Part shown: in pieces, positions 44,432-64,000 of the stretch
Layout: the number at the start of each line of letters is the position of its first letter
How positions within the stretch are numbered: position 1 is the stretch's first letter
Assembly (NCBI GenBank): GCA_963827685.1
Contig: CAWHBU010000007.1
Location: 96,001 to 160,000 of the forward strand
Length of the DNA: 64,000 nt
Reading direction: 5' to 3'
DNA from: an uncultured delta proteobacterium
GTDB lineage: Bacteria > Desulfobacterota > BSN033 > UBA1163
Notes under the pieces: model-generated
Database searches by the model: none
The model's input: the letters and a program-made list of their open reading frames with translations, nothing else
Told to the model about the DNA's origin: nothing
Program-made: the position numbers and the translations under genes

Positions 44432-44444
44432 AAGGAGGAAAACA

Positions 44445-47202: not shown

Positions 47203-47427
47203 AGGACACCCCTCAGGATTAATTGAAACTCATTTAGCAGAGCAATATAGAGAAGAAGGATAAGCCTGATTTCATTTTGCATATTTTCTCAGAGCTTGTC
47301 AAATTCCCTTTGAATACTGCTGGAAATATTCTGTTACTCCCTGTCTCCAATAGCGAAGTGGCCTCTTCTTTCGTTAAACTTTCTCCACCCTTGGAATTTC
47401 ATAAGCTCTCATCTCAAGAAAGATCCC

Positions 47428-47553
47428 TTATTCTGAAAAAAGTATGAATCTCAATATAATGATTAATGCTATCCCAAGAGTGATTAACATGACCAACATT
47501 GGGAGTGATGACTCCTTCTTTTCTTCCTTTTTTTCTTACTTCTTTTCCCTCAT
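47428..47553 (-). pseudogene. Second copy of the 41-aa microprotein with TAA at codon 6
   Basis: ATG AGG GAA AAG AAG TAA; the rest of the frame is conserved. Confidence 0.55.
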
Positions 47554-47682
47554 CCTATTTATCTCCTTTCCGGTCCCTGCGGATAGTGCAATCCTTCATC
47601 TTGATCTTTCAGTTGTAGGAAATAGGGTCATGATCTTGATCACTCGTCTCTTTTTCGGGATATCCGCATTCCTCGACCGAAT

Positions 47683-47783
47683 AAAAAAAGCCGCTACCCG
47701 AAATTTTACTTTCGAATAGCGGCCCGACTATCCAGCCCCGTTAACCTCCAGAAATATTAGAATATCTCTGGACCCATTAAACC
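47683..47783 (-). ncRNA. nhaA-I-like riboswitch candidate with terminator (UAGUCGGGCCGC variant)
   Basis: Same motif; TTGACA-N17-TATAAA promoter with -35 at 47828-47833. Confidence 0.65.
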
Positions 47784-48048
47784 TCTTTTTTCAAAAACAT
47801 GAAATTTATAATAAATTATTTTAAAAATGTCAAGGATTTTTCCATTGAACTTATGAGAATCAATTCTTGAGACTGTCGATGATCGCTTGAAATCCGGACT
47901 ATTTGGATAAAAACTCTGTTAACGGGCAAGGATTCTCTCAAGACTTCTTTTTACACCTTCTTGAGGAGGGAGGCATCCATTTCATTGTTTTGTATCTCCC
48001 AACACTGAATCATCGCCGAGAATTTACCGAGACTTAACCGGCTTTTGC

Positions 48049-49149
48049 TCAACTCTCTCCCTTTCTGATGATTGTGACCGCAGTGGCCTTAAAGGAAGCC
48101 CTCACTTCTTTTCCTTCTGTCAACGATAATTCTTCCACAGAATGATTCGTCACATGGGCAACGAGAGGAAATCCACACTGGAGATGAATTTTTTGATAAA
48201 GCCCTAAAGAGATGATCTTCACAATCTTCCCCTGAAATACGTTTCTGGCACTCGTTCCTTCTTGGGAAGGGCGAATCGAGAGGGTGACGTTTTCTGGCCG
48301 GATGCATAGAACCACCCTCTCTCCTAAATAGGCATCCCCAACCGCCTCGATCTCTTGACCCTCCACAGAGACAATAAACGTCCCGCCGTCCCTCTTGATC
48401 ACTTTCCCGGTCAGGATCGTCTCCACTCCCATGAAGGAAGCCACTAATTCATTCACAGGATGGTTCGCTACCTCTTCGGGAGATCCGATCTGAATGATCT
48501 GTCCTCCGTTCATCACGGCAATCCGATCTGACAGTCTCAAGGCTTCCAGACGATCGTGAGTGGCGAAGATGGCCGTCGTTCGGGTTTGCTGAAGGATATG
48601 CTCCAGGTCTTCAATCAGGGAATCGCGGGTAGGAGGGTCGAGGGAAGAAAAAGGTTCGTCAAGGAGAAGGATTTCGGGCCGAAGGGCAAAGGCCCGTGCG
48701 AGACTCGTCCTTTGTGCCTCTCCTCCTGATAGAGTTCTCGCAGAACGGCCTTTGAGATGAATAATTCCAAATTGTTCCAACTGCTCCATGGCTCGATCGC
48801 GAATTTCATTTCTTTTGAACCCACGAATTTTTAAACCCGATGCCACATTGTTAAAGACCGTTGTGTCAAAGAGGAGAGGCTCCTGGAAGACCATGGCCAG
48901 TTTCCTCCGGTATTCTAAAACGGAATGATTCTTTTCTACCCTATTCCCTCTAAAAAAGATTTCACCCCGAAAGGGCTTCAACAAATAGGATAAAGTTTGA
49001 AGTAAAGTGGTCTTCCCCGCCCCATTCGGCCCAATCAGGGAGAAGATCTCCCCTTCTTGGATTAAGAGAGACGGAACCTGAATGAGGATTGCTCCTCCCC
49101 TATTCACCCCAAGATTTTTGGCTTCCAGAATGGGAGTCGACTCCGTCAT
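48049..49149 (-). CDS. tupC: Tungstate ABC transporter ATPase with TOBE domains
   Basis: GPNGAGKT, LSGGEAQR and C-terminal SARN..FKA TOBE motifs. Confidence 0.85.
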   Translation of the reverse strand: MTESTPILEAKNLGVNRGGAILIQVPSLLIQEGEIFSLIGPNGAGKTTLLQTLSYLLKPFRGEIFFRGNRVEKNHSVLEYRRKLAMVFQEPLLFDTTVFNNVASGLKIRGFKRNEIRDRAMEQLEQFGIIHLKGRSARTLSGGEAQRTSLARAFALRPEILLLDEPFSSLDPPTRDSLIEDLEHILQQTRTTAIFATHDRLEALRLSDRIAVMNGGQIIQIGSPEEVANHPVNELVASFMGVETILTGKVIKRDGGTFIVSVEGQEIEAVGDAYLGERVVLCIRPENVTLSIRPSQEGTSARNVFQGKIVKIISLGLYQKIHLQCGFPLVAHVTNHSVEELSLTEGKEVRASFKATAVTIIRKGES

Positions 49150-49235
49150 AATTGTTTTCCTATAATAGGGGTTTTCTTAAAGTTATGAGCTGTTTGCCGT
49201 CCATCTTTTGCCTACTGCCTACTGCCTTCTTTTTC

Positions 49236-49934
49236 CTATCTCGGCCTTTCCCTCTGTTGGATTTGAGTGAGGATCAGATTGATGAAGTAAGCAAGCAATA
49301 GGAGAATAATACCCAAGGCAATGGCAATGTCGAAATTCCCGCGACTCGTTTCCATAACAGTCGCCGTGGTAAGAACTCGGGAATAGCCTTTGATATTACC
49401 GCCTACCATGATGGAAGCACCCACCTCAGAGATCACACCACCAAATCCTGCCATCACTGCGGCCAAAAGGGGAAGCTTCGCCTCTTTGATCAAGATCCAA
49501 ACCATCTGAAAACGAGTCGCCCCGAGAGCCAGAATTTGAAGCCGAAGCTTTTGGGGAAGTTGCTGAATCGCTGCCAGAGTAATCCCCATCACGATGGGGG
49601 TGGCGATGATGGCTTGGGCAATAATCATGGCGGTGGGCGTGTAGAGGATTTCAAAAAAGCCAAGGGGCCCGTTTCTCCACAGGAAGATGGTCACGAATAG
49701 ACCCACCACCACTGGCGGAAGTCCCATGCCCGTATTGATGAGACTTACGGCAAATCGCTTTCCCGGAAATCTTGAAAGCGCGATGGTCGTCCCAACAGAA
49801 ATCCCAATCAATAAGCTGATCAGTGTAGCTGTCGCCGAAACCTCGAGAGAAAGAAGGGTGATCCCCATAACCTCAGGATCAAAGGTAATCAAGAGAAAGA
49901 AAGCCTTCTTAATCCCTTCAAAAATAAGATCCAT
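49236..49934 (-). CDS. tupB: Tungstate ABC transporter permease
   Basis: MGLPPVVVGL and ISEVGA.IMVGGNI motifs. Confidence 0.9.
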   Translation of the reverse strand: MDLIFEGIKKAFFLLITFDPEVMGITLLSLEVSATATLISLLIGISVGTTIALSRFPGKRFAVSLINTGMGLPPVVVGLFVTIFLWRNGPLGFFEILYTPTAMIIAQAIIATPIVMGITLAAIQQLPQKLRLQILALGATRFQMVWILIKEAKLPLLAAVMAGFGGVISEVGASIMVGGNIKGYSRVLTTATVMETSRGNFDIAIALGIILLLLAYFINLILTQIQQRERPR

Positions 49935-49966
49935 CTCCAAACCCCAAATATCAAACACTAAAAATC

Positions 49967-50056
49967 TCCTCTCCCCTGGAGGGAGAGGATTAAGGTGAGG
50001 GGGAACAAATTCTTTTTACTCACCCCCACCCGCGCCCTCCCCCGTCAAGGGGGAGG
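49967..50056. repeat. Paired REP-like hairpins (empty form of the DUF559 element)
   Basis: Left and right motifs resemble the DUF559 flanks and are separated by only ~15-20 nt. Confidence 0.65.
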
Positions 50057-50135
50057 TAAGTAGGTTATATTTCTATGGTTCGCGGTAACAAATCCGTCAC
50101 GTAAGATTTGTTGGGGGGTTATTGGTGCTCGGCTA

Positions 50136-50996
50136 TTATTTTCCAAGCTCCTCTTCCTTTTTACCAGCATCCGGGAAGAAAAGAGGAAATCCGAATTTAT
50201 CGACTCCAAAGGTTTTGATGATGTCCTGGGTTTCTTTAGTGACCATGAAATCAGCAAAAGCTTTTGCCCCAGCGCTATTGACCTTAGGCCATTTCGTAGG
50301 ATTCACTTCAATGACATGATAGATGTTGAGGAGGATGGCATCCCCTTCGACCAGAATATCAAGTCCGAGGCTTTTCTTCAACGCCAGATAAGTCCCACGA
50401 TCGGCGAGTGTATAGCCTTTTTTCTCAGCGGCGACATTGAGGGTCTGGCCCATTCCAAGGCCGGTCTGCTGATACCATTTTTCTCCTTCGGGGTTGATCC
50501 CTGTAGCTTTCCAAATATCTTTTTCCTTTGCATGGGTTCCTGAATTATCTCCTCTTGACAAAAATAAGACTTTTGCCAAAGCTATTTTTTTAAACGATTC
50601 TGAAGAAGATTTTATTTCTTTGATCTTTGCCGGATCCCCGGAAGGTCCCACGATGATAAAGTCATTATGCATGACGAGCCTTCGATTTATTCCATAACCT
50701 TCAGCCATGAATTTCTTCTCAGCTTCGGGAGAATGGACCAGAAGCACATCGGCTTCTCCCTTTTGGCCCATCGCCATGGCCTGTCCCGACCCTACCGCAA
50801 TGGTCTTAACAAAATAGTCCGTCTTCTTCTCAAAGACGGGAAGAAGGACATCAAGAAGTCCCGAATCCTGCGTGCTGGTGGTGGTAGCGAGGATGATTGC
50901 CTTCGACTGCCCTTGAACAGAGAAAACTCCTGTGATGAATAAAAGTGAAACGACAACTCCTAATAACAGAATCTTTTGGCCTATCCGTCGATTCAT
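50136..50996 (-). CDS. tupA: Tungstate-binding periplasmic protein
   Basis: TTTS signature and SRGD.SGTH motif. Confidence 0.9.
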   Translation of the reverse strand: MNRRIGQKILLLGVVVSLLFITGVFSVQGQSKAIILATTTSTQDSGLLDVLLPVFEKKTDYFVKTIAVGSGQAMAMGQKGEADVLLVHSPEAEKKFMAEGYGINRRLVMHNDFIIVGPSGDPAKIKEIKSSSESFKKIALAKVLFLSRGDNSGTHAKEKDIWKATGINPEGEKWYQQTGLGMGQTLNVAAEKKGYTLADRGTYLALKKSLGLDILVEGDAILLNIYHVIEVNPTKWPKVNSAGAKAFADFMVTKETQDIIKTFGVDKFGFPLFFPDAGKKEEELGK

Positions 50997-51019
50997 AATC
51001 CTTCCTCCTTAATGGGTGA

Positions 51020-51883
51020 CTAATTTTTTTGGCCTTGTAAACTTCTCCATTCAACTGAGTTGGGAAAGAAAAGAGAACTCCCATATCTGTCTTTACCAAA
51101 GTCCCTGATGATCCTTTGGCCTTTCTCCGGAGAAGTCAGCCATTTTACAAAGATCATCACATCTTCATAATTTGCCTTCGGAAACTTCTTGGGGTTTACA
51201 GGAATCAGAGTCATATAATTCACAAGGGCATCATCTTTTTCTACCAACACAACCAATTTGATCTGGCCCTTCAGCGTAAGATAAGTAGCACGGTCAATCA
51301 CCGTATAAGCCTCTTTCTGGTCTGCATAGCACAGGGTGGGCACATTTCCCTCTGACCCTTTCTCATAAATGACATACCAGGAACCTGAAGGTTTGATCCC
51401 GGCTTTCTCCCACAACTGCATTTCCGCCACATGGGTTCCTGATTTGTCGCCCCGACTGATAAAAGTAACACCCCTCTCCGAAATCCTCTTAAGAGCCCTG
51501 GCGGCTTGTTGCATTCCTTTAATTCCGGCTTGATCATTGGAAGGGCCAACAATTACAAAATCGTTATACATCAAATCGATTCTTTCAGTCCCAAAGCCTT
51601 CACTCACAAATTTCTCTTCAAGAGATTTAGCATGGACCAAAACCAAATCCACATTTCCCTTTCGAGCAATATCTAAAGCTGCGCCAGTCCCTGAGCCCAC
51701 ATGGCGTACCCGGATACCTGTTTCTTTTTCAAATTCATTTTCCAGTAGATCAACAATGCCCGAGTCGATAGGGCCGATCGTACTGGCCATCAGGATAAAT
51801 TTACTGCTTTGAGCCAGACCCAACGAGGAATAGAGCAATAGTGAACAGAAGAATCCAACAGAAATCCATTTCTTCACACGCAC
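51020..51883 (-). CDS. Second TupA-like binding protein with variant motif
   Basis: ASTIGP in place of ATTTST; SRGDKSGTH conserved. Confidence 0.8.
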   Translation of the reverse strand: MRVKKWISVGFFCSLLLYSSLGLAQSSKFILMASTIGPIDSGIVDLLENEFEKETGIRVRHVGSGTGAALDIARKGNVDLVLVHAKSLEEKFVSEGFGTERIDLMYNDFVIVGPSNDQAGIKGMQQAARALKRISERGVTFISRGDKSGTHVAEMQLWEKAGIKPSGSWYVIYEKGSEGNVPTLCYADQKEAYTVIDRATYLTLKGQIKLVVLVEKDDALVNYMTLIPVNPKKFPKANYEDVMIFVKWLTSPEKGQRIIRDFGKDRYGSSLFFPNSVEWRSLQGQKN

Positions 51884-51894
51884 TCTCCTTTAGA

Positions 51895-52812
51895 CTATTT
51901 TCTTGAATAGAGAACTTTCCCTGAATTCTTGAAGTCGTAGCTTCCCAATCTTTCAACCCTGCTTCGAAATTCCTGGGAGTTTAGAATTTCGATGAAAGCC
52001 TGAACTCCTTTTTCGAAAAAGGTCGATTGATCAAGGAGCATATCAAAGCTTTCCCGGGTGACCGGGATAAATGGAAGACCGAGGAGTTTAGAAACGGCGA
52101 TGGTCGCAATCCCGACATCCGCTTCCTTTGAGAGGATCGAAAGACCCACTTCAAAATGTGTGTAGACCTCTTTTCCATACCCGTTGATCTTAGAAGGTAA
52201 AATCTGCAATCGCTTCAGGTGATGGTCTAAAAGCATTCTTGTTCCAGAACCCTTCTGCCGATTGACAAACCTGATCCCCTTTTCAGCCAAATCCTCGAAC
52301 CCACCGACATGGAAAGGATTTTTAGGAGCAACGACAAACCCAAGGTCCCGGCGAAAGAGATTGACCACAACGGGTTTCACATTAGGAAGATAGGTTGGAA
52401 GGAAAGGGATATTATATTCACCGCTTTTCGGATCAAATAGGTGAGACCAGGCAATATCCGTGTAACCCATATTTAAGGCCTTGAGTCCGTCGGTGCTTCC
52501 TGTATTGGCAGAAAAGATATAAAATTCAGGATACGATTTTTTCATATAGGTTTGGAGCATATCGAGGATCGGATCGTTGCTGCCCGAAGCCAGAAGGGCC
52601 CCTCCCATTCGTCTGCTTTTCTGCCGAGCCTCTCCAAGACCAATCTTGGCGTTCGATTCAATCCATTCATCAATCAATTTCCTTGGAAAAACCCACTTCC
52701 CGGTTACCCGGGTAGACGGGATCTTTTTGGATTTGATCAAGGCATAGACCTGCTTTTCATGGATTCCCAAATATTTAGCCGCTTCTTTGGTATTCATCAT
52801 CTCGTCTGGCAT
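51895..52812 (-). CDS. Excisionase-type HTH plus periplasmic-binding-fold regulator (TaoR-like, Mo/W sensing)
   Basis: MNTKEAAKYL..IP...GKW.F HTH; GS.D, GS..GL and NRQ.GSGTR motifs. Confidence 0.8.
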   Translation of the reverse strand: MPDEMMNTKEAAKYLGIHEKQVYALIKSKKIPSTRVTGKWVFPRKLIDEWIESNAKIGLGEARQKSRRMGGALLASGSNDPILDMLQTYMKKSYPEFYIFSANTGSTDGLKALNMGYTDIAWSHLFDPKSGEYNIPFLPTYLPNVKPVVVNLFRRDLGFVVAPKNPFHVGGFEDLAEKGIRFVNRQKGSGTRMLLDHHLKRLQILPSKINGYGKEVYTHFEVGLSILSKEADVGIATIAVSKLLGLPFIPVTRESFDMLLDQSTFFEKGVQAFIEILNSQEFRSRVERLGSYDFKNSGKVLYSRK

Positions 52813-52835
52813 GACTTCCTCCAATAAATAACAAA

Positions 52836-52898
52836 ATATTAAATGAGACGGAAATGCTTGTCAATGAATATATTTACAAATAACTACCTTTTATTACT
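52836..52898 (-). promoter_or_regulatory. Regulator/tup operon promoter with upstream GTAATAAAAGGT site
   Basis: Minus strand TTGACA-N17-TAATAT. Confidence 0.6.
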
Positions 52899-53101
52899 CC
52901 AAAATCCCTCTTATTTGGTATCAAATCTTTCTCTTTACTCTTTAAGAGTTACTTTCCCAGTAGGATGGAATTGTTTTCCGATTTCAGACGGAGGTCAGAT
53001 TCCTTGGCTATGAGCACCGATCAGGTCGGGCAGGATGAATAACAGGGGATCATCTGTCAAACTAAAGGCTAAATTATTGGGATGGAAATGTCCATATTAT
53101 G

Positions 53102-53171
53102 AGATAATAAGTAATAAAAAGTAATAATAAGTTATTTTTTTATTGACAACTCGCCTGGCCTCAATTATCAT
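53102..53171 (+). promoter_or_regulatory. Direct-repeat operator plus sigma-70 promoter of the TonB receptor operon
   Basis: TAATAAWAAG 10-bp periodic repeats followed by TTGACA-N17-TATCAT. Confidence 0.65.
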
Positions 53172-53387
53172 GTGTCACCAATTATGAAACGCCTCTTTTG
53201 AGTAGCTGATCAACATCTTGAAAAAATTGATGCTCCAGTAGCTCGATAGTCCTGGATTGGCATGATGCAGGGAAAGGCAAAAGAAAAAGGCAAATCGTTA
53301 GCGATTCAGCCTTCGGCGATCCTGGGGCAAGAGGTTTTTAAACTCTTGCGAGAAAGATAATTCTACACTTCAATCAAGGAGGGATTT

Positions 53388-55514
53388 ATGAAAAAGGGGG
53401 GAGTTTTCTTGATAGGCATGTGTTTGATTGTTCTTGTTTGCTTCAATGCTGCATGGGCAGAGGAAACTGCTAAAAGCGAGAGTAAGAAAGACTACCAAGT
53501 ATTTGACCTTGGGGAAATCTTTGTAACATCTGAGAAGCCGCCGGCAGTTCAAGATGTGGGCATCAGAAATGAAGTAAGCGCTGAAGACATCAAGGCCACG
53601 AATAGTACTACCGCTGCCGAGGCCTTGGCGTATGTCCCGGGGATTCGGGTTTCAACAGGACGCAAGAACCAACCCACGATTCAAATTCATGGGATGGATC
53701 AAACCCATACTTTGGTCCTCATTGACGGCGTCCCTTATTATGAAACCAAATACGGATTTCTCGATTTGAATGAGATTCCCGTCGATAACATCGCAAAAAT
53801 CGAGGTCACCAAGGGAGCGGCCTCTGTCCTCTACGGACCAAATGCTTTCATGGGGGTTGTCAACATCATTACGAAGAAACCTACTGAAAAACCTTCTGCC
53901 GACGTAACCCTGGAGTTCGGACCCTACGATACTAACAGGGAATCGGTTTCTCATGGCATGAAGGTCGGTATCTTCAGCTACTGGTTGAGCTACACCCATC
54001 AAGAGTCAGACGGATGGAGTTTGCCTAATGCTTTCATTCCACAGATCGGAACCATTACGAAAAAACCAGGGTCTACAACCAACGCCATCTTGCAAGATAC
54101 CGGCCCTCGTATTAATTCTTATTTCAAGACTGACGCCTTCTGGGCCAAAGTGGGCATCGATCCAAATCCAGGCTCAGAATACTATGTGAACTTCCATTAT
54201 ATCACCAGAGATAAAGGGGATCCTCCTTCGATATATGGTGGAACAACATTCCTCAGCCCGCCTGCCAATGCCTTTTCATCCATCTTTGACCAGATTCCAA
54301 AGTACGACGATTGGGGCATCGATTTGAGCGGGCAGCAAAAAGTCCTCAACCAATTGACCCTCAAGGGGAAGTTGTTTTATCACAATCACGTCGATGACTA
54401 CGCTTCCTATTCAGATCCGTATTATAGCAACGAAATTGCAATAAGCAGATACGAAGATTACAATTTGGGTGGGTCACTTATGGCAGACGTTCGACCTTTG
54501 GAGTGGGATATCATCAGGCTTGCTTTTAATTACAGAGGCGATTCCCACAAGGAGCGGGCTAACGATTCCCTGCCCTTTGCACCGTCATTTTCCTACACGG
54601 GGTCCGTTGGTCTTGAGAATGAGTTTAACTTAATAAAAAATTTATCCGTAGTTGCAGGAATCGGCTATGATTGGTTTAATGTCACAGAAGACAAGGTGAA
54701 TCAGATCACCAAGGCAGGAATTTACACCGGGCAAGTGAATGCAGGAAAGCGACCCGAAATGGACAACTGGGATCCAATGATTGGCGCTAACTACAACCTT
54801 ACTGACACCACGAGACTTTTTGGCTCGATTGCTCGCAAGGTGCGCTTCCCGACGCTGAACGACCTCTATTCATCCAAAGGTGGAAATCCAAACCTGAAGG
54901 CTGAAAAAACAATCAACTATACCCTTGGGGTCTCCCAATCCTTATCCAAATACGCAAAGGTAGAACTTGCTGGTTTCTATCATGACATTTCGGACTTCAT
55001 CAGTAACAGTGCAAATCCTATTCAAAATCCTTTGGCCCAGTTCCAAAATTACGCCAAAATCCAGTTGTTAGGGTTTGAGGTAAATGGAGAAATTTCCCCG
55101 ATGAAAGACCTGGTCCTCAATGCCGGTTACATGTTTAATAATGCCAGAGATAGAAGTATAGGTGCGGTAACGAGCGATGTCGCCAATATCCCTGAACATA
55201 AAATTGACGTAGGGGTCCACTATACGATCCCTTACGTCACGATTCCTTACATCAACAGCGCTACTCGTCTTGATCTTGAAGGCATCTATATGGCCAGGGT
55301 CTTCAGCCAGGTTCCAACCCCCCAATTTCCAACTCAGGCGACACAAATGGTCCACGGCTACTTTACTGCAAATGCCAGAATTTCAACGAGTTTCCTAAAA
55401 TATTTTGAAGCCTATCTGGCGGTCAACAACATCTTCGACAAGAATTATCAGTCAGAATACGGCTTCCCCGGTCCAGGGCGATGTTATTATGTCGGAATTT
55501 CTGCGAGGTATTAA
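53388..55514 (+). CDS. TonB-dependent receptor
   Basis: Signal peptide, plug motifs LIDG and IEVTKG..S.LYG, C-terminal NIFDK.Y..GR....Y. Confidence 0.9.
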   Translation: MKKGGVFLIGMCLIVLVCFNAAWAEETAKSESKKDYQVFDLGEIFVTSEKPPAVQDVGIRNEVSAEDIKATNSTTAAEALAYVPGIRVSTGRKNQPTIQIHGMDQTHTLVLIDGVPYYETKYGFLDLNEIPVDNIAKIEVTKGAASVLYGPNAFMGVVNIITKKPTEKPSADVTLEFGPYDTNRESVSHGMKVGIFSYWLSYTHQESDGWSLPNAFIPQIGTITKKPGSTTNAILQDTGPRINSYFKTDAFWAKVGIDPNPGSEYYVNFHYITRDKGDPPSIYGGTTFLSPPANAFSSIFDQIPKYDDWGIDLSGQQKVLNQLTLKGKLFYHNHVDDYASYSDPYYSNEIAISRYEDYNLGGSLMADVRPLEWDIIRLAFNYRGDSHKERANDSLPFAPSFSYTGSVGLENEFNLIKNLSVVAGIGYDWFNVTEDKVNQITKAGIYTGQVNAGKRPEMDNWDPMIGANYNLTDTTRLFGSIARKVRFPTLNDLYSSKGGNPNLKAEKTINYTLGVSQSLSKYAKVELAGFYHDISDFISNSANPIQNPLAQFQNYAKIQLLGFEVNGEISPMKDLVLNAGYMFNNARDRSIGAVTSDVANIPEHKIDVGVHYTIPYVTIPYINSATRLDLEGIYMARVFSQVPTPQFPTQATQMVHGYFTANARISTSFLKYFEAYLAVNNIFDKNYQSEYGFPGPGRCYYVGISARY

Positions 55515-55648
55515 TACAAACGCATTAAATAAATTGTCTTTGCGAGGAATGAAATGACGAAGCAATCTCGTATTTATGGAGCGAGATTGCCACGCTCCCG
55601 CTGGTCGCTCGCAATGACAATGTAAAAGCATTTAATGCGTTTGTATTA
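55512..55648. mobile_element. MITE-like element with perfect 19-bp terminal IR
   Basis: TAATACAAACGCATTAAAT / ATTTAATGCGTTTGTATTA; internal TTGCGAG..GCAATCTC..GAGATTGC..CTCGCAA palindrome. Confidence 0.7.
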
Positions 55649-55702
55649 GTTGTTAAGGGTTCTCCCCGAGGACCAATGAGCATCACAAAAAAGGAGGATC
55701 AT

Positions 55703-57460
55703 ATGAAAAAAAAGTTAGCGTTGCCACATTTTTTCCTTTTCATCTTCTTTTTATGTTTTCTTGCAGTAAATGGATGGACAGCATCCTTACCAACGATCAG
55801 CATCACAGGCTCGGTCAGGCAGCCTTTAAATCTGACCCTCGAAGACCTGCAAAGATTAGAAACCGTTACGGTCCGGTTGAATGAGGTGACCAGGGATCAT
55901 CAATATAACGGCGCATTTTATTTCCGGGGGGTTCCCTTAAAAACATTGCTTGAACTTGCCTATGTTCAAAAAGAAGAAACAGGCTTTTCAAAACTTAATG
56001 ACCTTGCCGTTGTGGTGCGTAATAAGGACGGAAAGCAGACCGTCCTTTCATGGGGGGAGGTATTTTTCAGCAACCCCGGAGAAGTGGTACTGACCTTTTC
56101 CGGTACTCCCATTATGCCGCACGCAGACTGCAAGATTTGTCATGGGCCTGAGGTTTATCAGTCCAGGCTGGACATTCTTTCACGCCGGGTAGGCCTCCCC
56201 AAACTTGTCGTTGCCAATGATTTCTACACAGACCGTTCCCTTGAAGACGTAACAAATATCGAAGTGGTTGATCTGCATCTCAAAATGGTTTTTAAAAAAA
56301 CTCAAAACCTCTTCTCACCTGGGTTCATGGTAACAGGCGATGTAAAACAAACCTTAAATATCTCTGAACTTGCTTCTTATCCCCGTGCCGAGGCTCCGGC
56401 GAAAATGATAGGAGACGGAGCAGGTTATCATGGCCTGGAGTCTTACGGAGGGGTCCTTCTTTCAGAACTCCTCAAAAAAGCAGGCGTAACACCGGATTTT
56501 AATCAAGCCATCGTCATCTCAGCGCCTGATGGTTACCGTACCCTTCTTTCCTGTGGAGAAGTGTTCTTATCTTCAAGAGGAAAGAGCATCATGATTGCCG
56601 ATCAGGTGGCAAATCAACCTGTCAAGAAGGATGGGAAGTTTAAGCTTATCCTACCCGATGATCTCTCCGCTGACCGGACGGTGAAAGCCGTCAGCAAGAT
56701 CGAGGTGGTGTCCTTAAACCCCAAATCCAATTTCTACATTATAGGATTGGGCTGTTCCGACACCCGACTGGTTACCCTGGAGGCTATTTCCGCCATGGGC
56801 AAAGCTGATATCTTTGTTTGCGTAGAGGACCTCCAGAAACGGTTCGCCAAATACATCGGGAACAAACCGGTGCTCTTTGATCCTTTCAAGAGCAAACGGC
56901 ACCAGGCTAAACAGAGCTCTTCCCATGTGGATGCTAAGTACGGCCAGGAATCTATTACTGAGGAGACAAAGCGCGACATCCAAACGATCCGGGAAGCGCT
57001 CCAAGCCGGGAAAACGGTTGCCTTTCTCGAATACGGCGACCCAACCCTCTATCCAAGCTGGATGCACTGGCTCGGCGACTTGGCGAAAGAAGCGCATTAC
57101 ATCCCGGGCATCAGCGCTTTTAACGCCTCGAACGCTATGATCGGGAGGCATATTGGCTGTAAGGGATCGATCATTCTCACAGTCCCAAGGGGTCTGCAGG
57201 AGAATGAGCCCCTGCTCAAGGCAGTAGCGGAAAATGGCGACACGGTGGCTATCTTTGTCGGGCTGAAGGAGTTGAAAAATCTCAAACCTCTCTTCCAAAA
57301 GCACTACGCAAACACAACACCCGTCCATCTTGTCTACAGGGCAGGATATTCTGACAGTGAATATTTGGTGAAAACCACGATTGCAGAAGTTGTCGAGGTG
57401 GCGGAGAAAGAACAGGAGAAGTATTTGGGAATGATTTATATCGGCCCGTGCCTGAAGTAG
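55703..57460 (+). CDS. Exported protein: two molybdopterin-oxidoreductase-like domains, CxxCH, C-terminal tetrapyrrole-methylase domain
   Basis: Signal peptide; GV.L..LL repeats and DGY; CKICH; IGLG..D, GDP.LY and PGISAF motifs. Confidence 0.7.
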   Translation: MKKKLALPHFFLFIFFLCFLAVNGWTASLPTISITGSVRQPLNLTLEDLQRLETVTVRLNEVTRDHQYNGAFYFRGVPLKTLLELAYVQKEETGFSKLNDLAVVVRNKDGKQTVLSWGEVFFSNPGEVVLTFSGTPIMPHADCKICHGPEVYQSRLDILSRRVGLPKLVVANDFYTDRSLEDVTNIEVVDLHLKMVFKKTQNLFSPGFMVTGDVKQTLNISELASYPRAEAPAKMIGDGAGYHGLESYGGVLLSELLKKAGVTPDFNQAIVISAPDGYRTLLSCGEVFLSSRGKSIMIADQVANQPVKKDGKFKLILPDDLSADRTVKAVSKIEVVSLNPKSNFYIIGLGCSDTRLVTLEAISAMGKADIFVCVEDLQKRFAKYIGNKPVLFDPFKSKRHQAKQSSSHVDAKYGQESITEETKRDIQTIREALQAGKTVAFLEYGDPTLYPSWMHWLGDLAKEAHYIPGISAFNASNAMIGRHIGCKGSIILTVPRGLQENEPLLKAVAENGDTVAIFVGLKELKNLKPLFQKHYANTTPVHLVYRAGYSDSEYLVKTTIAEVVEVAEKEQEKYLGMIYIGPCLK

Positions 57461-57470
57461 AGCCCGAGTC

Positions 57471-58808
57471 ATGCAACTCAAGCGCAGGCTTAACCTTTTT
57501 GATGCGACTCTGCTCGTTATCGGTAACGTGGTTGGGGCAGGTATCTTCACAACGAGCGGCTTTTTGGCCGGTGAGCTGCCCCAACCCTTGCTTTTTATCG
57601 CCATCTGGGTCATAGGGGGACTTCTTACGTTATGCGGAGCCTTGACCTATGCCGAGATGGCGGGGATGTTTCCCCGTTCGGGCGGAGATTACCAATTCTT
57701 AAAAGAGGCATATGGCCCATGGGCGGGTTTTCTCCTGGGCTGGGTCAGCTTTTGGGTGATCACCCCAGGCTCCATTGCCGTGCTTTCCATTGCGATGGTA
57801 GCGTATATAAAAGGTTTTCTCCCTCTTCATTACGCTCTTTCAGAAAAGTTCTTAGCAGTGGCAATCATCTCTTTCCTCTCTTTTATAAACTACCGAGGGG
57901 TACGCTTGAGTGGAACGATACAGGACATTTTTACCCTGGGAAACCTGCTCATCATTCTTGCATTAATCTTAGGCGGATTAACATCTGGAAACGGCAATTG
58001 GCAGCACTTTACGGCGGCCTCTCCAGCCTCTTTGCCTTTTCCCAAACTTTTTGGACCCGCGATGATTGCGGTGCTTTTTACTTATAGCGGTTGGTTTGCT
58101 TCTGCCTACATTGGGGCCGAAGTCAAAAACCCTGAGAGGAATCTTCCCTTTTCCCTGTTATTGGGGACAATCATCGTTACCCTTTTTTACACGGCTATCA
58201 ATCTTGTTTATCTCTATGCCCTTCCGCTTTCACAACTGAAAGGTACTGTCAATGTGGCACAAGTTACGGCAGGGACCCTTTTCAACCCCAGGGTTGCTCA
58301 GGTCGTTTCCTTATCGATCATTCTGGCTATCAGCGGCAGCATCAATGCGACGATCCTTGGGGGAACGCGCATCTATTACGCGATGGCTGAAGACAAGATC
58401 TTCTGGTCCCCCCTGAAAAGGCTTCACCCCAAGTACGGCACTCCCCATTTTTCCATTTTGAGTCAACTGATTTTAGCCTGCATCCTGGTTTCATTAGGAA
58501 CGTTTGGCCAATTGCTAAGCTATGTGGTGTTTGTGATGCTACTCTCCTCCATTGCCGCAGGCGTGGCCCATTTTATATTGCGTCTGCGAAAACCGGGCCT
58601 GCCAAGACCTTACCGCACCGGAGCATATCCTGTTGTCCCTCTCCTATTTATTTGTTTTTATATTTGGATTGCCATTCAAATAGCCTATGCCAAGCCGCTG
58701 ACCTCCATCGCAGGTCTGATCATCACTCTTTCTGGATTGCCTTTCTTTATCTGGTTTAAAACAATCAGATTTCGAGGAAAAAACAAGATGGATTACGGAA
58801 TGGCTTAG
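57471..58808 (+). CDS. APC family amino acid permease
   Basis: GAGIF, YAE.A..FP.SGG.Y, YSGW and EVKNP motifs. Confidence 0.9.
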   Translation: MQLKRRLNLFDATLLVIGNVVGAGIFTTSGFLAGELPQPLLFIAIWVIGGLLTLCGALTYAEMAGMFPRSGGDYQFLKEAYGPWAGFLLGWVSFWVITPGSIAVLSIAMVAYIKGFLPLHYALSEKFLAVAIISFLSFINYRGVRLSGTIQDIFTLGNLLIILALILGGLTSGNGNWQHFTAASPASLPFPKLFGPAMIAVLFTYSGWFASAYIGAEVKNPERNLPFSLLLGTIIVTLFYTAINLVYLYALPLSQLKGTVNVAQVTAGTLFNPRVAQVVSLSIILAISGSINATILGGTRIYYAMAEDKIFWSPLKRLHPKYGTPHFSILSQLILACILVSLGTFGQLLSYVVFVMLLSSIAAGVAHFILRLRKPGLPRPYRTGAYPVVPLLFICFYIWIAIQIAYAKPLTSIAGLIITLSGLPFFIWFKTIRFRGKNKMDYGMA

Positions 58809-58964
58809 GATGTGGATTTTCGGGTACCACAAGCTCTTAAAATCGTAGTCAACACTTATCGAATTAAAGTTCCCCTTGTAAATGATGATGTGCTTTGAGC
58901 ACAGTAGCAATAAATGACAGACTCTTTTCTTAGAGCGGCGCCTGGTCTTCAAAGGAGGAATGAG

Positions 58965-59588
58965 ATGTTTGCAGGGAAAACAGTGTGGGAAATCATTCAG
59001 ATTGGTGGTTTCACGATGTACATCCTACTCTTCTGCTCTTTTTTATCCATCACCATCCTTTTGGAAAGGATCATTTACTACAGAAGACTATCCCGAACCA
59101 AAAGATCGGAATTTATGACGAGAATAAAAAGGGCATTGAAAAGTGGGAGTATTGAAAAGGCCATGGAAATCTGCAAGCACACTCATGCGCCTATCTCGAA
59201 TGTCATTTATTCCGGACTGGTGCTCCATGATCACCATGAAAAACAAATATCCAGCGCGATGGAGCGAGAGATCACGGTCGAAACCACAAAATTAGAGCGT
59301 TTCACGAGCATCGTGGGAACCATTGGGAACACGGCTGTTTATATCGGGCTCTTTGGAACAGTGCTCGGGATCATCAGGGCATTTCATGATATCGCCGTGG
59401 CCGGAGCCGGTGGAATGAGCATTGTCATCGGGGGGGTGGCCGAAGCACTGGTCTGTACGGCCATGGGGCTTTTCGTAGCTGTCCCTGCAGTCATCGCATT
59501 CAATTACTTTATGAAAAGAGTTGAACGGTTTATCAATGATATGGAAATATGCGCTTCCGAATTAATCGACCTGATGGGCAAGGAATAA
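58965..59588 (+). CDS. exbB: ExbB/TolQ proton channel
   Basis: IGLFGTV.GI and GVAEAL..TA.GL motifs. Confidence 0.85.
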   Translation: MFAGKTVWEIIQIGGFTMYILLFCSFLSITILLERIIYYRRLSRTKRSEFMTRIKRALKSGSIEKAMEICKHTHAPISNVIYSGLVLHDHHEKQISSAMEREITVETTKLERFTSIVGTIGNTAVYIGLFGTVLGIIRAFHDIAVAGAGGMSIVIGGVAEALVCTAMGLFVAVPAVIAFNYFMKRVERFINDMEICASELIDLMGKE

Positions 59589-59594
59589 AGTATT

Positions 59595-59996
59595 ATGAAG
59601 AGAAAAAATAGAAGATCCCGATTAATGGCAGAGATTAACATCACCCCTTTTACCGATGTGGTTCTGGTTCTATTGATCATCTTCATGATCGCTACCCCTT
59701 TCATTTATCAATCCAGTCTGAAAGTTCAATTGCCCAAGGCATCGAAATCTGAGGAGACATCGCGAGACATCATCATCAACATTAATGCTCAGGGAGAGGT
59801 TTTCTTTGAGGATACGAAACTTGATTTAGAGACGCTCAAATATAAGCTGAGGGCTATGATGAGAAGTAAGCCGGACGCGTTTGTGATTGTTAACGGGGAT
59901 AAGAATGTCAAATATGATTCAGTGATACAGGTGATGGATGTCTTAACGCAATCGGGCGTCAAGAACCCTGGCTTAGGGATAGAACTAAAAAAATGA
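59595..59996 (+). CDS. exbD: ExbD/TolR protein
   Basis: INITPFTDVVLVLLIIFM motif. Confidence 0.85.
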   Translation: MKRKNRRSRLMAEINITPFTDVVLVLLIIFMIATPFIYQSSLKVQLPKASKSEETSRDIIININAQGEVFFEDTKLDLETLKYKLRAMMRSKPDAFVIVNGDKNVKYDSVIQVMDVLTQSGVKNPGLGIELKK

Positions 59997-60949
59997 ATAG
60001 ATTAAAAATTGTGGGGAAACAACCCCGTCTTCTTATGGATTTACCTCAATCGGATACAGGGGGACTGTTGAGGACAGGGGTTTTCTCTTTCCTCCTCCAT
60101 ATTGTCTTAATCAGCTTTCTGATTCTTAACCTGAAGACAGGAACCACAAGAGGTAGGTTTCCTGTTTATCGGGTGACCATTCAACCCTTATCCCTTCAGA
60201 ACAACTCGAAACCCCTTCTCCCCCAGGCGTTGCCAGCTCCCCAGCCCATTCCTGTAAAACCTCAAATTCAGAAAGAAGAAATTAGGCCAAAGGAAGACGT
60301 AAAAAAGAATGAACCTGTTAAAGAACCAAAACAAGTCACTCAACTCAAGGAGGATGAGCAAACCATACAAAAGCCAATCCCCTTACCAATGGCTGAAACA
60401 TCGACTTTGAATACGGACTTAACACTGAAAAAGGAAGAAATTCTCTCTATTCCTACGGTCCTCCCCCCTCAAGAAAAAAATACCTTAACAAAATCAGGAA
60501 CTGGAGGTTCTTCCCTCAGCGGTTCTGGTGAAGGAGAAGGAATTGGAGGAGGGTCTCGATGGGGAGGTATAGGAAAAGGGACTGGGACGGAACGAGGGGG
60601 TTCCGGTTTTGGAGGTTCCGGAAAAGGGTCAGGGACTGGAAAGGGGGGCGGTCGGGGTGGTTCTGGTGCAGCCTCACCCATATATGGTGAGAATCCAAAA
60701 CCTCCCTATCCTCTGGAAGCCAGGGAAAGAGGATACCAGGGGAAAGTCTTATTGAAGGTGGAGGTTCTTCCCGATGGCCGGGTGGGTGAGATTGAGTTGA
60801 AAGAGTCTTCTGGCTACGAAGTGCTTGATCAATCTGCTCTCGCCACGGTGAAAAAATGGAGATTTATTCCTGCCAGGAAGGGAAAAGTTGCAATCTCCTG
60901 CTGGGTAAACGTACCGATTACTTTTCAGCTCAAAGATATTTCCTTCTGA
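59993..60949 (+). CDS. tonB: TonB energy transducer
   Basis: S..LH TM motif, Pro/Gly-rich linker, P.YP..AR, SSG...LD and W.F.PA motifs. Confidence 0.9.
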   Translation: MNRLKIVGKQPRLLMDLPQSDTGGLLRTGVFSFLLHIVLISFLILNLKTGTTRGRFPVYRVTIQPLSLQNNSKPLLPQALPAPQPIPVKPQIQKEEIRPKEDVKKNEPVKEPKQVTQLKEDEQTIQKPIPLPMAETSTLNTDLTLKKEEILSIPTVLPPQEKNTLTKSGTGGSSLSGSGEGEGIGGGSRWGGIGKGTGTERGGSGFGGSGKGSGTGKGGGRGGSGAASPIYGENPKPPYPLEARERGYQGKVLLKVEVLPDGRVGEIELKESSGYEVLDQSALATVKKWRFIPARKGKVAISCWVNVPITFQLKDISF

Positions 60950-61063
60950 GCTGGTATAAGATATTTGGTGTAAAAAGAGAGAGGGGTGTTATCCTCTTAG
61001 GAAGATTTTCGGCAAAATACAATCCCAATGAGAAAGGAGGCCAGGTTTTTGGGTTGAAAATGT

Positions 61064-61134
61064 GAATAATATAAGATAATAAGTAATAAAAAGTTATTTT
61101 TTTTCTTGACAAATAAAATCCTCCTTATTATTAT
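61064..61134 (+). promoter_or_regulatory. Direct-repeat operator plus sigma-70 promoter of the porin gene
   Basis: AGATAATAAGTAATAAAAAGT shared with the 53102 site; TTGACA-N17-TATTAT. Confidence 0.65.
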
Positions 61135-61276
61135 GTTGACTCGATTTTTGGAAATTCGTTGCAATCCTTGGAAAGGAAGGGAAGATTTGACTCAAGTGAA
61201 GTTGGTTGTGAATTTTATTAATACGCTCAGAAATCACGAAACACGATTCACGAATCACAGAAGGAGGAGGGGGGAG

Positions 61277-62890
61277 ATGAAAAAATTCATTGTTCTATGC
61301 TTAGCCGGGCTTCTAATTCTGGCGTTTAGCGCACCAGGATATGCCCAGGCACCAAAATTGGAATTCAAAGCATCAGGCTACATCGATACCCAAACGTTTA
61401 TTGGCGAAGGTGTTCCGCAATATAATAGCAACCCAGGCAATACAGACATTTGGGGCGTTGTTAATAAAAACTACGCTCTAACGAGCCCATCGGGAACCTA
61501 TGGCATAGGCTCTGCAGGTTGGAACAGGACCCAATCCAACTGGGAAGGCCGCGCCCACCTCAAATTCGATGCGGTGATGGGCCCGAATTTGAGCGGAACC
61601 ATCTACTTCGAGATAGATACTTACCGATGGGGCGCCCCAATGAATTCATATGGCGCATGGACGAGAGAGGCGAATAACTTTGGCTCGTGGACGACTGACC
61701 GGACTGCAATCGAGGTCAAGAACATCTATATCGATGTTGGCCTCCCCTATTTCGGAATCCCGGTACCCATAACGGTGAGGGTGGGCGCCCAGCCATTAGG
61801 CGTCCGGCCGAACATGTTAATGTATACGGATGGTACAGGGGTCACGGGTGGCATCAAGATTGACCCTGTGCTCATCGCTCCGATTTATGCCAAGGCCCTT
61901 GAAAACCTTGATTTTGCCGACGACGATGTGGATGTCTGGGGTCTCCATGCGAATGCCAAGATCAGAACTTTCACGGTAGGCGCCTACGGTCTCTGTTACA
62001 GGATGAACACCTATCCATTCTATGTGCAAGGCGCGACTGTCATCCCTGCTGGCGTAAGTGGCAACACTGGCTTAATTAACCAAGTCCCAGGGACCTTTAA
62101 ATCCCATATGTGGTGGTTGGGAGCTTATGTGGATGGGAAGGCAGGTCCGGTTAATTTCAATTACGACTTTGTGTATGACTATGGCTCGGTTGACGAGCGA
62201 CTATCCCCAAATGTCCACAATGTCAAATACGAGGGGTGGGCAACACGACTCAAAGCTGACTATCCATGGGAGAAGTTCAACTTCGGAGTGGTTGGCATGT
62301 ATGCTACGGGCGCTGATACCAGAAGGACCTCTTCCAGTGGCCTCCCAGGAAGTTTGACAGCCGGTCTTCCTGGTGCGGCTAGTGGGAGGCAGTCTACCAG
62401 AGTCACAAGCTATGTCATTCCGCCTGGTGCAGAACAGTCATCAGCTGACCAAGAGTCGATCGTTGTCTATGGCATGGAGAACGGAGCCAGCGGAGGCTAC
62501 GGTATTGCCCACATGATCAATTACGGACAAGTGAGTAGAGGCGGATTCGGTGGAACCTGGTTTGCCAAGCTCTATGGCAGTGCCAAGCTATTACCGTGGT
62601 ATAAGGTCACCCTCCAGGGACTTTATATTGGTGATACCACCGGAAACGGAAATACCCTCGGTAACGCTGTAAAGTATAAAGGTGCTTCATTGTTGAGGGA
62701 TGACAATTCTATTGGTTTTGAATTGGATTTGATGAATGATATACAGATTTACAACAACCTGAGGTTCTGGGTCGGTGCTGGGTACCTCTTTGCCGGGAAC
62801 GCACTGGATATAAATAATGCGGGGAGTGGTGTAAACCATTCAGCGGCGAACCCCTGGGCCATCAGGACAAGATTGGTCTACACCTTCTAA
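61277..62890 (+). CDS. Outer-membrane beta-barrel (porin-like) protein
   Basis: Signal peptide, alternating beta-strand pattern, C-terminal YTF. Confidence 0.75.
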   Translation: MKKFIVLCLAGLLILAFSAPGYAQAPKLEFKASGYIDTQTFIGEGVPQYNSNPGNTDIWGVVNKNYALTSPSGTYGIGSAGWNRTQSNWEGRAHLKFDAVMGPNLSGTIYFEIDTYRWGAPMNSYGAWTREANNFGSWTTDRTAIEVKNIYIDVGLPYFGIPVPITVRVGAQPLGVRPNMLMYTDGTGVTGGIKIDPVLIAPIYAKALENLDFADDDVDVWGLHANAKIRTFTVGAYGLCYRMNTYPFYVQGATVIPAGVSGNTGLINQVPGTFKSHMWWLGAYVDGKAGPVNFNYDFVYDYGSVDERLSPNVHNVKYEGWATRLKADYPWEKFNFGVVGMYATGADTRRTSSSGLPGSLTAGLPGAASGRQSTRVTSYVIPPGAEQSSADQESIVVYGMENGASGGYGIAHMINYGQVSRGGFGGTWFAKLYGSAKLLPWYKVTLQGLYIGDTTGNGNTLGNAVKYKGASLLRDDNSIGFELDLMNDIQIYNNLRFWVGAGYLFAGNALDINNAGSGVNHSAANPWAIRTRLVYTF

Positions 62891-63140
62891 CCCAATCGTA
62901 ACGAAAAAGGCGGCTTTTTCCGGCCCCTTTTTTTTGGCCTTGTAACCATTGTCATCCACACTCATGTGAATAATAAGGTCGTTGCCAAACTCAATAAGCT
63001 GGATCATAGTGGGCTTGGCATGACGAATGTATTATTATTTCATAATATGACGGTGTCGTGAAGTCCTGACTGGTTTCTATTCCAAGAACGTTGTGTGAAC
63101 CTATATCCGGATAAAGAAGAGGAGAAGGCATGAAGAGTCT

Positions 63141-63335
63141 TTCTTCCGAATGGCCGGGTGGGTGAGATTGAGTTGAAAGAGTCTTCCGGCTACGAAGTGC
63201 TTGATCAATCTGCTCTCGCCACGGTGAAAAAATGGAGATTTATTCCTGCCAGGAAGGGAAAGGTTGCAATCTCCTGCTGGGTAAACGTACCGATTACTTT
63301 TCAGCTCAAAGATATTTCCTTCTGAGATATTTGGT
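63141..63335 (+). repeat. Near-identical duplicate of the tonB 3' end (~60765-60969)
   Basis: About 185 bp with few substitutions, includes the stop codon, no in-frame start. Confidence 0.9.
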
Positions 63336-63448
63336 TCTTTCCAAGTGGTGGATCTGTGATTCCACGCCCAAAGACAGAAGCACTGCCTTACCGAATTGCT
63401 CTGTGGATTTCAATGTTTTCTATTTCGAAATCTATTTTTAGAAAATAG

Positions 63449-63484
63449 AACTCGGGGGGACGGAAGGTCCATCCCCCCGAGTTC
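63449..63484 (-). terminator. Terminator hairpin of the thiolase gene
   Basis: GAACTCGGGGGGA..TCCCCCCGAGTTC. Confidence 0.7.
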
Positions 63485-63489
63485 AGACG

Positions 63490-64000
63490 TTAACCAACCT
63501 TGAAGATCATGGCAGCAGCGGTATCACCGGCAGCACAACCGGTAAAGAGGCAATACCCCCCACCCAAGAGCACCATCTCCTCCAGCATCTCCATAATGAT
63601 CCGGCCCGCTGTCGGGGCCTGGGGATGCCCGTAGATCAGGGAGCAGCCATAGTTGTTCATCTTCATGACATCGATACCCATTTTCTTTGCAAAGTTGATG
63701 TCATTGGTGGCAAAGGGGTTGTGGGTCTTGATGGCCTTCATGTCCGTGATCTTAAGCCCGGCGTTGGCAAGGACCATTTCGGCGGCTGGCACGGGCGCAG
63801 CAGCCATGTAACCTGGCTTAACCCGAGCAAAGCCATAGGATAAAATTTTTATTTCTATCTTTGGATCGGCACTCAGTTCCTTGGCCCTGTCCCGGGTGGT
63901 TACGATGAAGCCGCAGTTACCGTCGGCGGGGAACGTCTGGGCCCCGAAGCTGTGGACACCACCCGGCTCAGCCGGTTTGAGCTTGGCCAGACCTTCAGCA
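63490..64000 (-). CDS. Thiolase family protein, 5' part outside the window
   Basis: HNPFA, YGHPQAPT and GCAAGD motifs; frame open to the window end. Confidence 0.85.
   Translation of the reverse strand, partial: AEGLAKLKPAEPGGVHSFGAQTFPADGNCGFIVTTRDRAKELSADPKIEIKILSYGFARVKPGYMAAAPVPAAEMVLANAGLKITDMKAIKTHNPFATNDINFAKKMGIDVMKMNNYGCSLIYGHPQAPTAGRIIMEMLEEMVLLGGGYCLFTGCAAGDTAAAMIFKVG

Follow-up and report, generated by a model that had tools for sequence, protein, structure and literature searches.

What is a TonB-dependent outer-membrane receptor doing beside a tungstate-type ATP-binding cassette (ABC) transporter? The question is raised by positions 48049 to 62890 of a 64,000-nucleotide stretch of DNA from an uncultured delta proteobacterium (contig CAWHBU010000007.1, positions 96,001 to 160,000; this whole stretch is called the window below). 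Tungstate and molybdate are taken to pass the outer membrane passively. Enzymes of tungsten and molybdenum (W/Mo), such as formate dehydrogenases, aldehyde oxidoreductases and benzoyl-CoA reductases, are central to anaerobic carbon and energy metabolism, and both metals are scarce or sequestered in sulfidic sediments. The answer that we favour, with a probability of roughly 0.55, is that the locus is a co-regulated W/Mo acquisition island, in which a TonB-energised outer-membrane step would feed the Tup ABC transporter.

The gene content was established from the list of open reading frames (ORFs) and from family scans with Pfam and NCBIfam, the NCBIfam scores being judged against the curated or equivalog cut-offs. 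A first-pass annotation of this DNA had described a regulator-tupA'-tupA-tupB-tupC cluster divergent from genes for a receptor, an exported fusion protein, an APC permease, exbB, exbD, tonB and a porin. This order was confirmed, with 12 of 12 genes lying where they had been placed and belonging to the families proposed. The features of the island are as follows.

48049..49149, minus strand: TupC-like ABC ATPase with C-terminal TOBE domain (Pfam ABC_tran 5e-32, TOBE 1.9e-12)
49236..49958, minus strand: TupB-like ABC permease (Pfam BPD_transp_1; NCBIfam ABC_perm1 275 bits, cut-off 100)
50136..50996, minus strand: TupA2, canonical TupA-type periplasmic tungstate-binding protein, TTTS and SRGDxSGTH loops kept
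51020..51883, minus strand: TupA1, variant TupA-like binding protein, STIGP instead of TTTS
51895..52824, minus strand: regulator, HTH_17 (excisionase/MerR-type helix-turn-helix, HTH) plus PBP_like oxyanion-binding-type domain (Pfam 1.7e-15 and 1.7e-62)
52836..52898, minus strand: regulator/tup operon promoter; repeat 52886-52898, -35 TTGACA from 52864, -10 ending 52836
53104..53171, plus strand: receptor operon promoter; three 10-bp phased repeats 53104-53132, -35 at 53143, -10 ending 53171
53388..55514, plus strand: TonB-dependent outer-membrane receptor (Pfam Plug 4.8e-26, TonB_dep_Rec_b-barrel 9.9e-35)
55676..57460, plus strand: exported fusion protein, 594 amino acids (aa); likely start M10, 55703
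57471..58808, plus strand: APC-superfamily permease (Pfam AA_permease_2 6.2e-58)
58914-59588, plus strand: exbB (Pfam MotA_ExbB 1.1e-32)
59595-59996, plus strand: exbD (Pfam ExbD 7.5e-32)
59993-60949, plus strand: tonB (Pfam TonB_C 7.3e-24)
61076..61134, plus strand: porin promoter; two phased repeats 61076-61094, -35 at 61106, -10 ending 61134
61277..62890, plus strand: porin (NCBIfam DESULF_POR1 99.5 bits, below the cut-off of 250)
63141..63325, plus strand: duplicated tonB 3'-end remnant behind the porin cassette, a copy of the tonB end

Are the divergent operons under common control? A direct-repeat motif shared by three promoters had been noticed in the first reading, and it proved real. 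With at most two mismatches, AGTAATAAAAAGT had five matches in the 64-kb window (1.45 expected; 0 of 100 shuffles reached five), and four of the five lay at those promoters. Six exact matches of ATAANAAGT were found in the window, a count that one of 100 shuffles reached. Five of these six were phased at 10 bp, at 53104, 53114 and 53124 and again at 61076 and 61086, and the repeat core can be written as a 10-bp phased direct repeat, ATAAnAAGT. A related copy, AGTAATAAAAGGT, is present at 52886-52898 on the minus strand, ahead of the regulator gene. At all three promoters a TTGACA box follows 10-21 nt downstream of the end of the repeat block, and these promoters are the best sigma-70-like sites of the region (11, 11 and 10 of 12 positions matching). 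The receptor and porin promoters have 60 nt in common at 82% identity (53066-53125 on the receptor side). Genome-wide, with at most one mismatch allowed, four of nine motif matches fell in this locus. Because the control, the same pattern reversed, had 18 matches, the count itself is unremarkable and only the clustering is notable. As to further regulon members, one of the five such matches outside the locus (L080) was inspected and discarded, since it lies in apparent coding sequence with no TTGACA downstream.

The repeats were then followed in related loci. A scan at one genome per species yielded 77 of these (numbered with the prefix L), in which twelve window proteins were compared by tblastn. 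In L003 and L015, two orthologous loci with 87% identical regulators, both the repeats and the hexamers are kept at the receptor and regulator promoters while the leader has diverged, and the motif at the regulator promoter stands at the same spacing from the -35 box as here. In the distant locus L024, too, AATAAGTTATT lies upstream of the -35 box. The exact 13-mer occurs in 0 of the 77 related loci, the repeats there being variants. Taken together, the repeats are most likely the sites of the adjacent regulator, which would thereby regulate itself as well; their position cannot tell the sign of the regulation.

Other modes of control were looked for around these promoters. Neither a cobalamin nor a molybdenum cofactor (Moco) riboswitch gave an Rfam match at E values up to 1 within positions 44000-64000, and none reached the gathering score across the window. 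The 213-nt receptor leader folds no better than shuffled sequences (z = -1.2). No Fur box was found: the best match in the promoter regions scored 12/19 against the E. coli consensus, which is not a lineage-specific motif, and 58 other window positions equalled it.

Is the proximity of receptor module and tup genes more than an accident of this genome? TupA-like genes number only two in its 5.2 Mb, both in this island, from which we estimate a chance adjacency of well under 1% per 20-kb stretch. Linkage was counted over 57 related loci with a homologue of the N-terminal half of the fusion protein, 24 of which extend at least 8 kb to both sides (long loci). The counts were as follows.

Receptor (at least 40% identical): 26/57 loci, 15/24 long loci
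APC permease: 22/57 loci, 11/24 long loci
ExbD: 22/57 loci, 12/24 long loci
TupA: 18/57 loci, 12/24 long loci
TupB: 10/57 loci, 7/24 long loci
Regulator: 11/57 loci, 6/24 long loci
TupA or regulator: 23/57 loci, 14/24 long loci

Thermodesulfobacteriota-type bacteria, Nitrospirota and Spirochaetota account for the tup-linked loci, and the regulator is found in a Ca. Abyssobacteria locus. In L027 the island has a form that bears FmdE. Their gene orders vary: the operons are divergent here and in L003 and L015, form a co-directional array in L024, and in L033 tupABC stands upstream of the fusion gene. In the Nitrospirota loci L018, L020, L021 and L052, a short protein of the two N-terminal domains is directly followed by tupA-tupA-tupB-tupC. 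It can be seen that the tup linkage, which the first-pass annotation had staked on neighbourhood comparison, recurs across three phyla in differing orders and is thus conserved. This conservation supports a functional link between the TonB-receptor module and the tup genes.

How firmly can the transporter be called a tungstate system? TupA2 matched solved structures closely (3muq, E 4.8e-72; 3lr1, deposited as a tungstate-binding protein, 3.8e-67; 5my5, 7.9e-66), and its loops read LATTTSTQDSG and SRGDNSGTH. TupA1, when aligned to 3lr1, shows a changed loop, with STIGP replacing TTTS. Such loop-altered paralogues (STIGP or TGSP) stand beside canonical ones in L024, L051, L027, L039, L008 and L017 as well. 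By NCBIfam, TupA2 scored 256 bits (TupA cut-off 400) and TupA1 182 bits; TupB reached 163 bits (cut-off 320), and the top match of the ATPase was WtpC at 298 bits (cut-off 440), each of them below threshold.

The regulator is the sole full-length copy in the genome, and its C-terminal part matched PRK14498 at 215 bits, below the cut-off. The TunR family, which Kazakov et al. reportedly described in 2013, is said to comprise tungstate-responsive regulators of sulfate reducers, with an N-terminal HTH and a C-terminal oxyanion-binding-type domain, adjoining tup/mod genes; a TonB receptor operon is not known to belong to its regulon. The island regulator, with HTH_17 and PBP_like domains, is one that we take to be TunR-like by architecture. 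Another tungstate-responsive regulator, TaoR, is described in PMC12327845.

What does the receptor carry? Both the plug and the 22-strand barrel domain are present and above gathering scores (Pfam Plug 91.8 bits, barrel 121.7 bits). Its placing rests on curated family cut-offs, and all NCBIfam receptor families fell short of theirs: TonB-B12 scored 129 (cut-off 600), BtuB PRK10641 104 (836), TonB-hemin 147 (317) and TonB-siderophore 143 (224). Matches to Protein Data Bank sequences fell mainly on the plug. The first-pass annotation had reasoned that a B12 or haem receptor under B12 or Fur control would speak against it. This objection was not borne out: no curated BtuB, haem or siderophore cut-off was reached, neither a B12 nor a Moco riboswitch was found, and a search with the E. 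coli consensus gave no Fur box. Chelator biosynthesis genes were not seen in the window or in eight annotated related loci.

The gap that separates the receptor gene from the fusion gene is filled by a perfect inverted repeat of 19 nt (55512-55530 and 55630-55648), whose arms stand 99 nt apart. It may act as an attenuator or a processing site, or it may be a small mobile element.

An odd product of the island is the protein encoded behind the receptor. It had been annotated as an exported fusion protein, and this description can now be filled in: it is Sec-exported and consists of two degenerate sulfite-oxidase (SUOX)/PruR-like domains (A, residues 39-203, with CxxCH; B, 215-348) and a class III methyltransferase-like domain (350-594). 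The signal peptide (MKKKLALPHFF...) is of Sec type without a twin arginine, and family alignments begin at M10. The family, which is large and uniform, has 571 matches, mostly of about 585 aa and named merely 'precorrin methylase' or 'SAM-dependent methyltransferase' (SAM, S-adenosylmethionine).

Domains A and B are homologues, with 30% identity between them (E 4e-14). The model of the N-terminal half was of good quality (predicted local distance difference test score, pLDDT, 89; predicted template-modelling score, pTM, 0.88). When it was compared with 48,161 chains, the ten best matches were all SUOX Moco domains or PruR (Z 11.1-16.5; the next at Z 7.0), with Z 16.5 to the SUOX Moco domains of 2blf and 2xts. 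An earlier model of the whole protein was mediocre (pLDDT 70, pTM 0.41), and its domain arrangement was not used. In that model domain B superposed on PruR 7kom (Z 15.2, root-mean-square deviation, rmsd, 2.1 A over 121 residues), on PruR 7rkb with neopterin (Z 15.1, 1.9 A, 120 residues) and on chicken sulfite oxidase 3hbg (Z 16.6, 2.6 A, 138 residues). The N-terminal half has no Mo-ligand cysteine; the cysteines of the CxxCH motif are the sole invariant ones, and C152, C155 and H156 of domain A are invariant in 11/11 and 17/17 aligned sequences.

In 28 of 59 related loci the fusion gene is immediately preceded by a CcsA-like gene (Pfam Cytochrom_C_asm; TIGR03144 59 bits, below cut-off) and the gene of a membrane partner of about 257 aa that belongs to no family. 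Because of this neighbourhood, there is good indirect evidence that the CxxCH of domain A binds haem c. Examples of the pair are at L009:8475-10019, L017:8475-9990, L020:8481-10019 and L027:12054-13563; it looks like a diverged, private haem-handling pair for one cytochrome.

The C-terminal domain matched Pfam TP_methylase at 1.6e-35 (123.5 bits against a gathering score of 27.8), and the family profile matched CbiF 4e16 at 2.3e-19; the fold of the domain matched this class at Z 8-9.5. The G-x-G-x-x-D, GDP and PGIS loops are kept. A search of the ESM Atlas with this part returned only TP_methylase clusters of Thermodesulfobacteriota. Folding the N-terminal half together with the variant TupA as a complex gave scores of 0.00 and 0.00, which weigh neither way.

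Could the cargo be the cofactor itself? The pterin cofactor suggested in the first reading gained support at the level of fold, both N-terminal domains having the degenerate Moco-binding fold of the pterin binder PruR. According to PMC11194511 and PMC13259868, PruR has a cysteine-less SUOX fold, is exported by the Sec route and sandwiches pterins between a tyrosine and a tryptophan. An Asn/Asp residue adds a hydrogen bond to the pterin. One might suppose a pterin-bound metal salvage, in which Moco, the W cofactor or a fragment would be imported, its pterin bound by the degenerate Moco-type domains and the metal stripped in the periplasm and passed to TupA. Besides the superposition of domain B on PruR and on SUOX Moco domains, with which the N-half model agrees, motif reading shows that domain B retains a D-G-Y triplet at the place of N102-x-Y104 of PruR. 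However, by the same reading the stacking tryptophan of PruR (W160, in its VKW) is alanine in domain B, and the PruR tyrosine is lacking in domain A. Free Moco is, moreover, labile. The PruR pocket itself is described as too short for Moco (PMC11194511), and on balance we consider this salvage distinctly improbable.

The kinship with PruR, a signalling protein, raises another thought, namely that the fusion protein is a periplasmic sensor of a pterin or redox signal and neither a carrier nor an enzyme. PruR pterin-binding proteins are described as small, single-domain periplasmic proteins encoded with a DcpA-type partner (PMC11194511). No GGDEF/EAL or DcpA-type gene was found by the family scans in the operon of the fusion gene, and no DcpA-type or sensor-kinase partner is seen in the window or in the eight annotated related loci. 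The fusion gene is instead inside a transport operon, often behind the haem-handling pair, and a sensory role is hardly credible.

What do the APC permease and the methyltransferase-like domain contribute? The permease falls within no curated subfamily (best NCBIfam score 229 bits, cut-off 557). Compared with L002, L003 and L015 it keeps 93-95% identity, against 75-83% for the receptor and the fusion protein (the fusion about 80%), which argues for unusually strong constraint on the permease. Among loci with at least 5 kb downstream, the permease accompanies the full-length fusion in 17/30 and the short or cut form in 1/9; in the one exception, L050, a methyltransferase part is nearby. Exported methyltransferase-like proteins of more remote kinship, some single and some in tandem, all of them with a signal peptide, occur in Desulfobacterales clusters. 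Two of these (L061:1823-12535 and L067:3742-15633) encode ExbB-ExbD-TonB, an exported FmdE-domain protein, a receptor, an APC permease, TP_methylase-like proteins and DUF4198 (Ni/Co-type) proteins; L061 also encodes a 1057-aa MFS/spermine-synthase/TPR protein. Judged by their genes, these clusters evidently form a sister system. On this showing the methyltransferase-like/APC pair resembles a portable sub-module that serves TonB-dependent uptake, and the part tied to Tup is the SUOX/PruR-like haem half.

These clusters bear on a further alternative, that the cargo is not W/Mo at all (it might be a Ni/Co complex, a tetrapyrrole or an amino-acid-derived chelator) and that regulation or location is merely shared with tup in some lineages. 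Methyltransferase-like proteins and APC permeases keep company with a receptor and DUF4198 proteins in L061 and L067, and APC homologues are present in 14 of the 18 loci L060-L077. The top sub-threshold NCBIfam matches of the receptor are haem and siderophore subfamilies, the methyltransferase-like fold ordinarily handles tetrapyrroles, and tup genes are absent in half of the long loci. Against this, the tup linkage tracks the N-terminal half and not the methyltransferase-like one, and the short Nitrospirota form, without methyltransferase domain or APC permease, abuts tupA-tupA-tupB-tupC. In addition, the motif of the tup operon is common to all three promoters, and no cobalamin riboswitch was found. 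We therefore regard a cargo other than W/Mo as unlikely.

Several observations nevertheless weigh against a W/Mo acquisition island. Both TupA proteins, TupB and TupC stay under their NCBIfam equivalog cut-offs, so that a Tup-like transporter is established while the choice among tungstate, molybdate and another oxyanion is not settled by the scores. TupA is missing within 10 kb in 12 of the 24 long related loci, and L006 has the same receptor-fusion-APC-exbBD-tonB order with neither tup genes nor regulator; a gene of the Fur family precedes its receptor gene by about 7 kb. The occurrence of the methyltransferase-like, APC and receptor genes without tup in Desulfobacterales means that this machinery is not W/Mo-specific. 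The first paralogue copy in L027 is without CxxCH. Finally, a supply of SAM in the periplasm is not known, and a catalytic role of the methyltransferase-like domain is accordingly hard to picture.

Why does a porin end the island? Its most likely start is ATG 61277, followed by a signal peptide; TTG 61106 sits on the -35 box. The protein is 75% identical to a paralogue elsewhere in the genome, at G000:C3:868667-870292, ahead of which the repeats are missing. Beyond the porin lies a second copy of the tonB 3' end, about 185 bases long and with the same stop context (95% identity between segments 63141-63200 and 60765-60824), and a 55-aa ORF at 63158-63325 repeats the TonB C-terminus. Since the tonB end (60765-60949) is copied at 63141-63325, the porin cassette with its promoter was evidently inserted later, after tonB, and gained a receptor-type promoter. 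The porin is absent at that place in L003 and L015; in L017, L050 and L058 a Porin_O_P-type porin stands behind the tupA genes.

How, then, might a W/Mo acquisition island work? The regulator would sense W/Mo through its PBP_like domain and act at the repeats. The three promoters would drive, respectively, the regulator with the two TupA proteins and TupBC; the receptor with the fusion protein, the APC permease and a private ExbB-ExbD-TonB; and the duplicated porin. The receptor may take up a W/Mo species that porins serve badly, be it complexed, thiolated, cofactor-bound or very scarce. In the periplasm, the fusion protein would hold this species in its two degenerate Moco-type pockets, and its c-type haem, perhaps with the methyltransferase-like domain, would free the oxyanion by redox processing. 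TupA would receive the freed oxyanion for import by TupBC, the variant TupA might handle a different species, the porin would increase passive oxyanion flux, and the APC permease may move an amino-acid-like partner of the fusion chemistry.

A more daring version can be drawn for anaerobes of sulfidic sediments. Cofactor-bound or complexed W/Mo would enter through a dedicated TonB-dependent receptor and be dismantled in the periplasm: the mono-haem protein would hold the pterin-dithiolene-metal, haem redox would free the oxyanion for TupA, and the APC permease would supply or remove an amino-acid-like co-substrate. The methyltransferase-like domain may assist, for instance by capping thiolates; human Moco catabolism to urothione includes such an S-methylation step. 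We offer this scheme as a long shot.

No description of a TonB-dependent tungsten route, or of the combination found in this island, came to light in the literature searched. The parts are of known kinds (TonB receptor, TupABC, PruR/SUOX fold, class III methyltransferase fold, TunR-like regulator architecture), and the combination is new as far as that literature goes. Should the more daring scheme hold, no TonB-dependent route for tungsten and no periplasmic use of the tetrapyrrole-methylase fold would precede it. The island would explain how the sulfate reducers, syntrophs, Nitrospirota and spirochaetes that carry the island secure W/Mo. The island also offers parts to examine: the receptor, a new family of exported haem-motif proteins with several hundred members, a variant class of TupA and a candidate regulator site. 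In Pseudomonas, a secreted ModA is reported to deliver molybdate to an outer-membrane protein (PMC11734730).

Elsewhere in the window, three nhaA-I (Na+-type) riboswitch matches lie on the minus strand, two in tandem at 41049-41111 and 41252-41312 and one at 47714-47775 (47-48 bits, gathering score 37). The last is upstream of a 680-aa GT20 trehalose-phosphate-synthase-like gene (44957-46999), which adjoins a TreT-like trehalose synthase gene (43229-44431). This placement suggests ion-sensing control of compatible-solute synthesis. The scan with the Fur consensus also brought up identical 19-mers at 40790-40829 and 47455-47494, 6.7 kb apart and near the riboswitch copies, which indicates a repeated leader segment.

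The island can finally be set beside the systems that it resembles. With TonB-dependent metal-chelate uptake (siderophore receptors of the FepA/FhuA type, BtuB-BtuFCD, the pseudopaline receptor CntO) it has in common a plug-barrel receptor, its own ExbB-ExbD-TonB and a binding protein with an ABC importer. It differs in the oxyanion (Tup)-type ABC partner and in the added APC permease and exported haem-motif/SUOX-like/methyltransferase-like protein. With the TupABC tungstate transporter it shares a TupA2 close to solved TupA-type proteins, with the anion loops kept, followed by a permease and a TOBE-bearing ATPase, whereas here a second, loop-altered TupA is present and the operon is tied to a TonB receptor, an exported haem-motif protein and a porin. 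The N-terminal half of the fusion protein has the fold of the SUOX molybdoenzymes, without their Mo-ligand cysteine and without the twin-arginine (Tat) export of their periplasmic members. PruR (7kom, 7kos, 7kou, 7kp2, 7rkb) is likewise exported by Sec and has a degenerate SUOX fold that lacks the Mo-ligand cysteine (Z about 15, rmsd about 2 A over about 120 residues), while the domains of the fusion protein are in tandem, are joined to a methyltransferase-like domain and include one with CxxCH. Like c-type cytochromes, the fusion protein carries the CxxCH haem-attachment motif in an exported polypeptide, and haem binding is predicted. With the class III SAM methyltransferases (CbiF, CbiL, CobA) it shares the TP_methylase domain, the fold and the glycine-rich, GDP and PGIS loops; unlike them it is exported, stands outside a tetrapyrrole pathway context and scores far under the cut-offs of all NCBIfam equivalogs.

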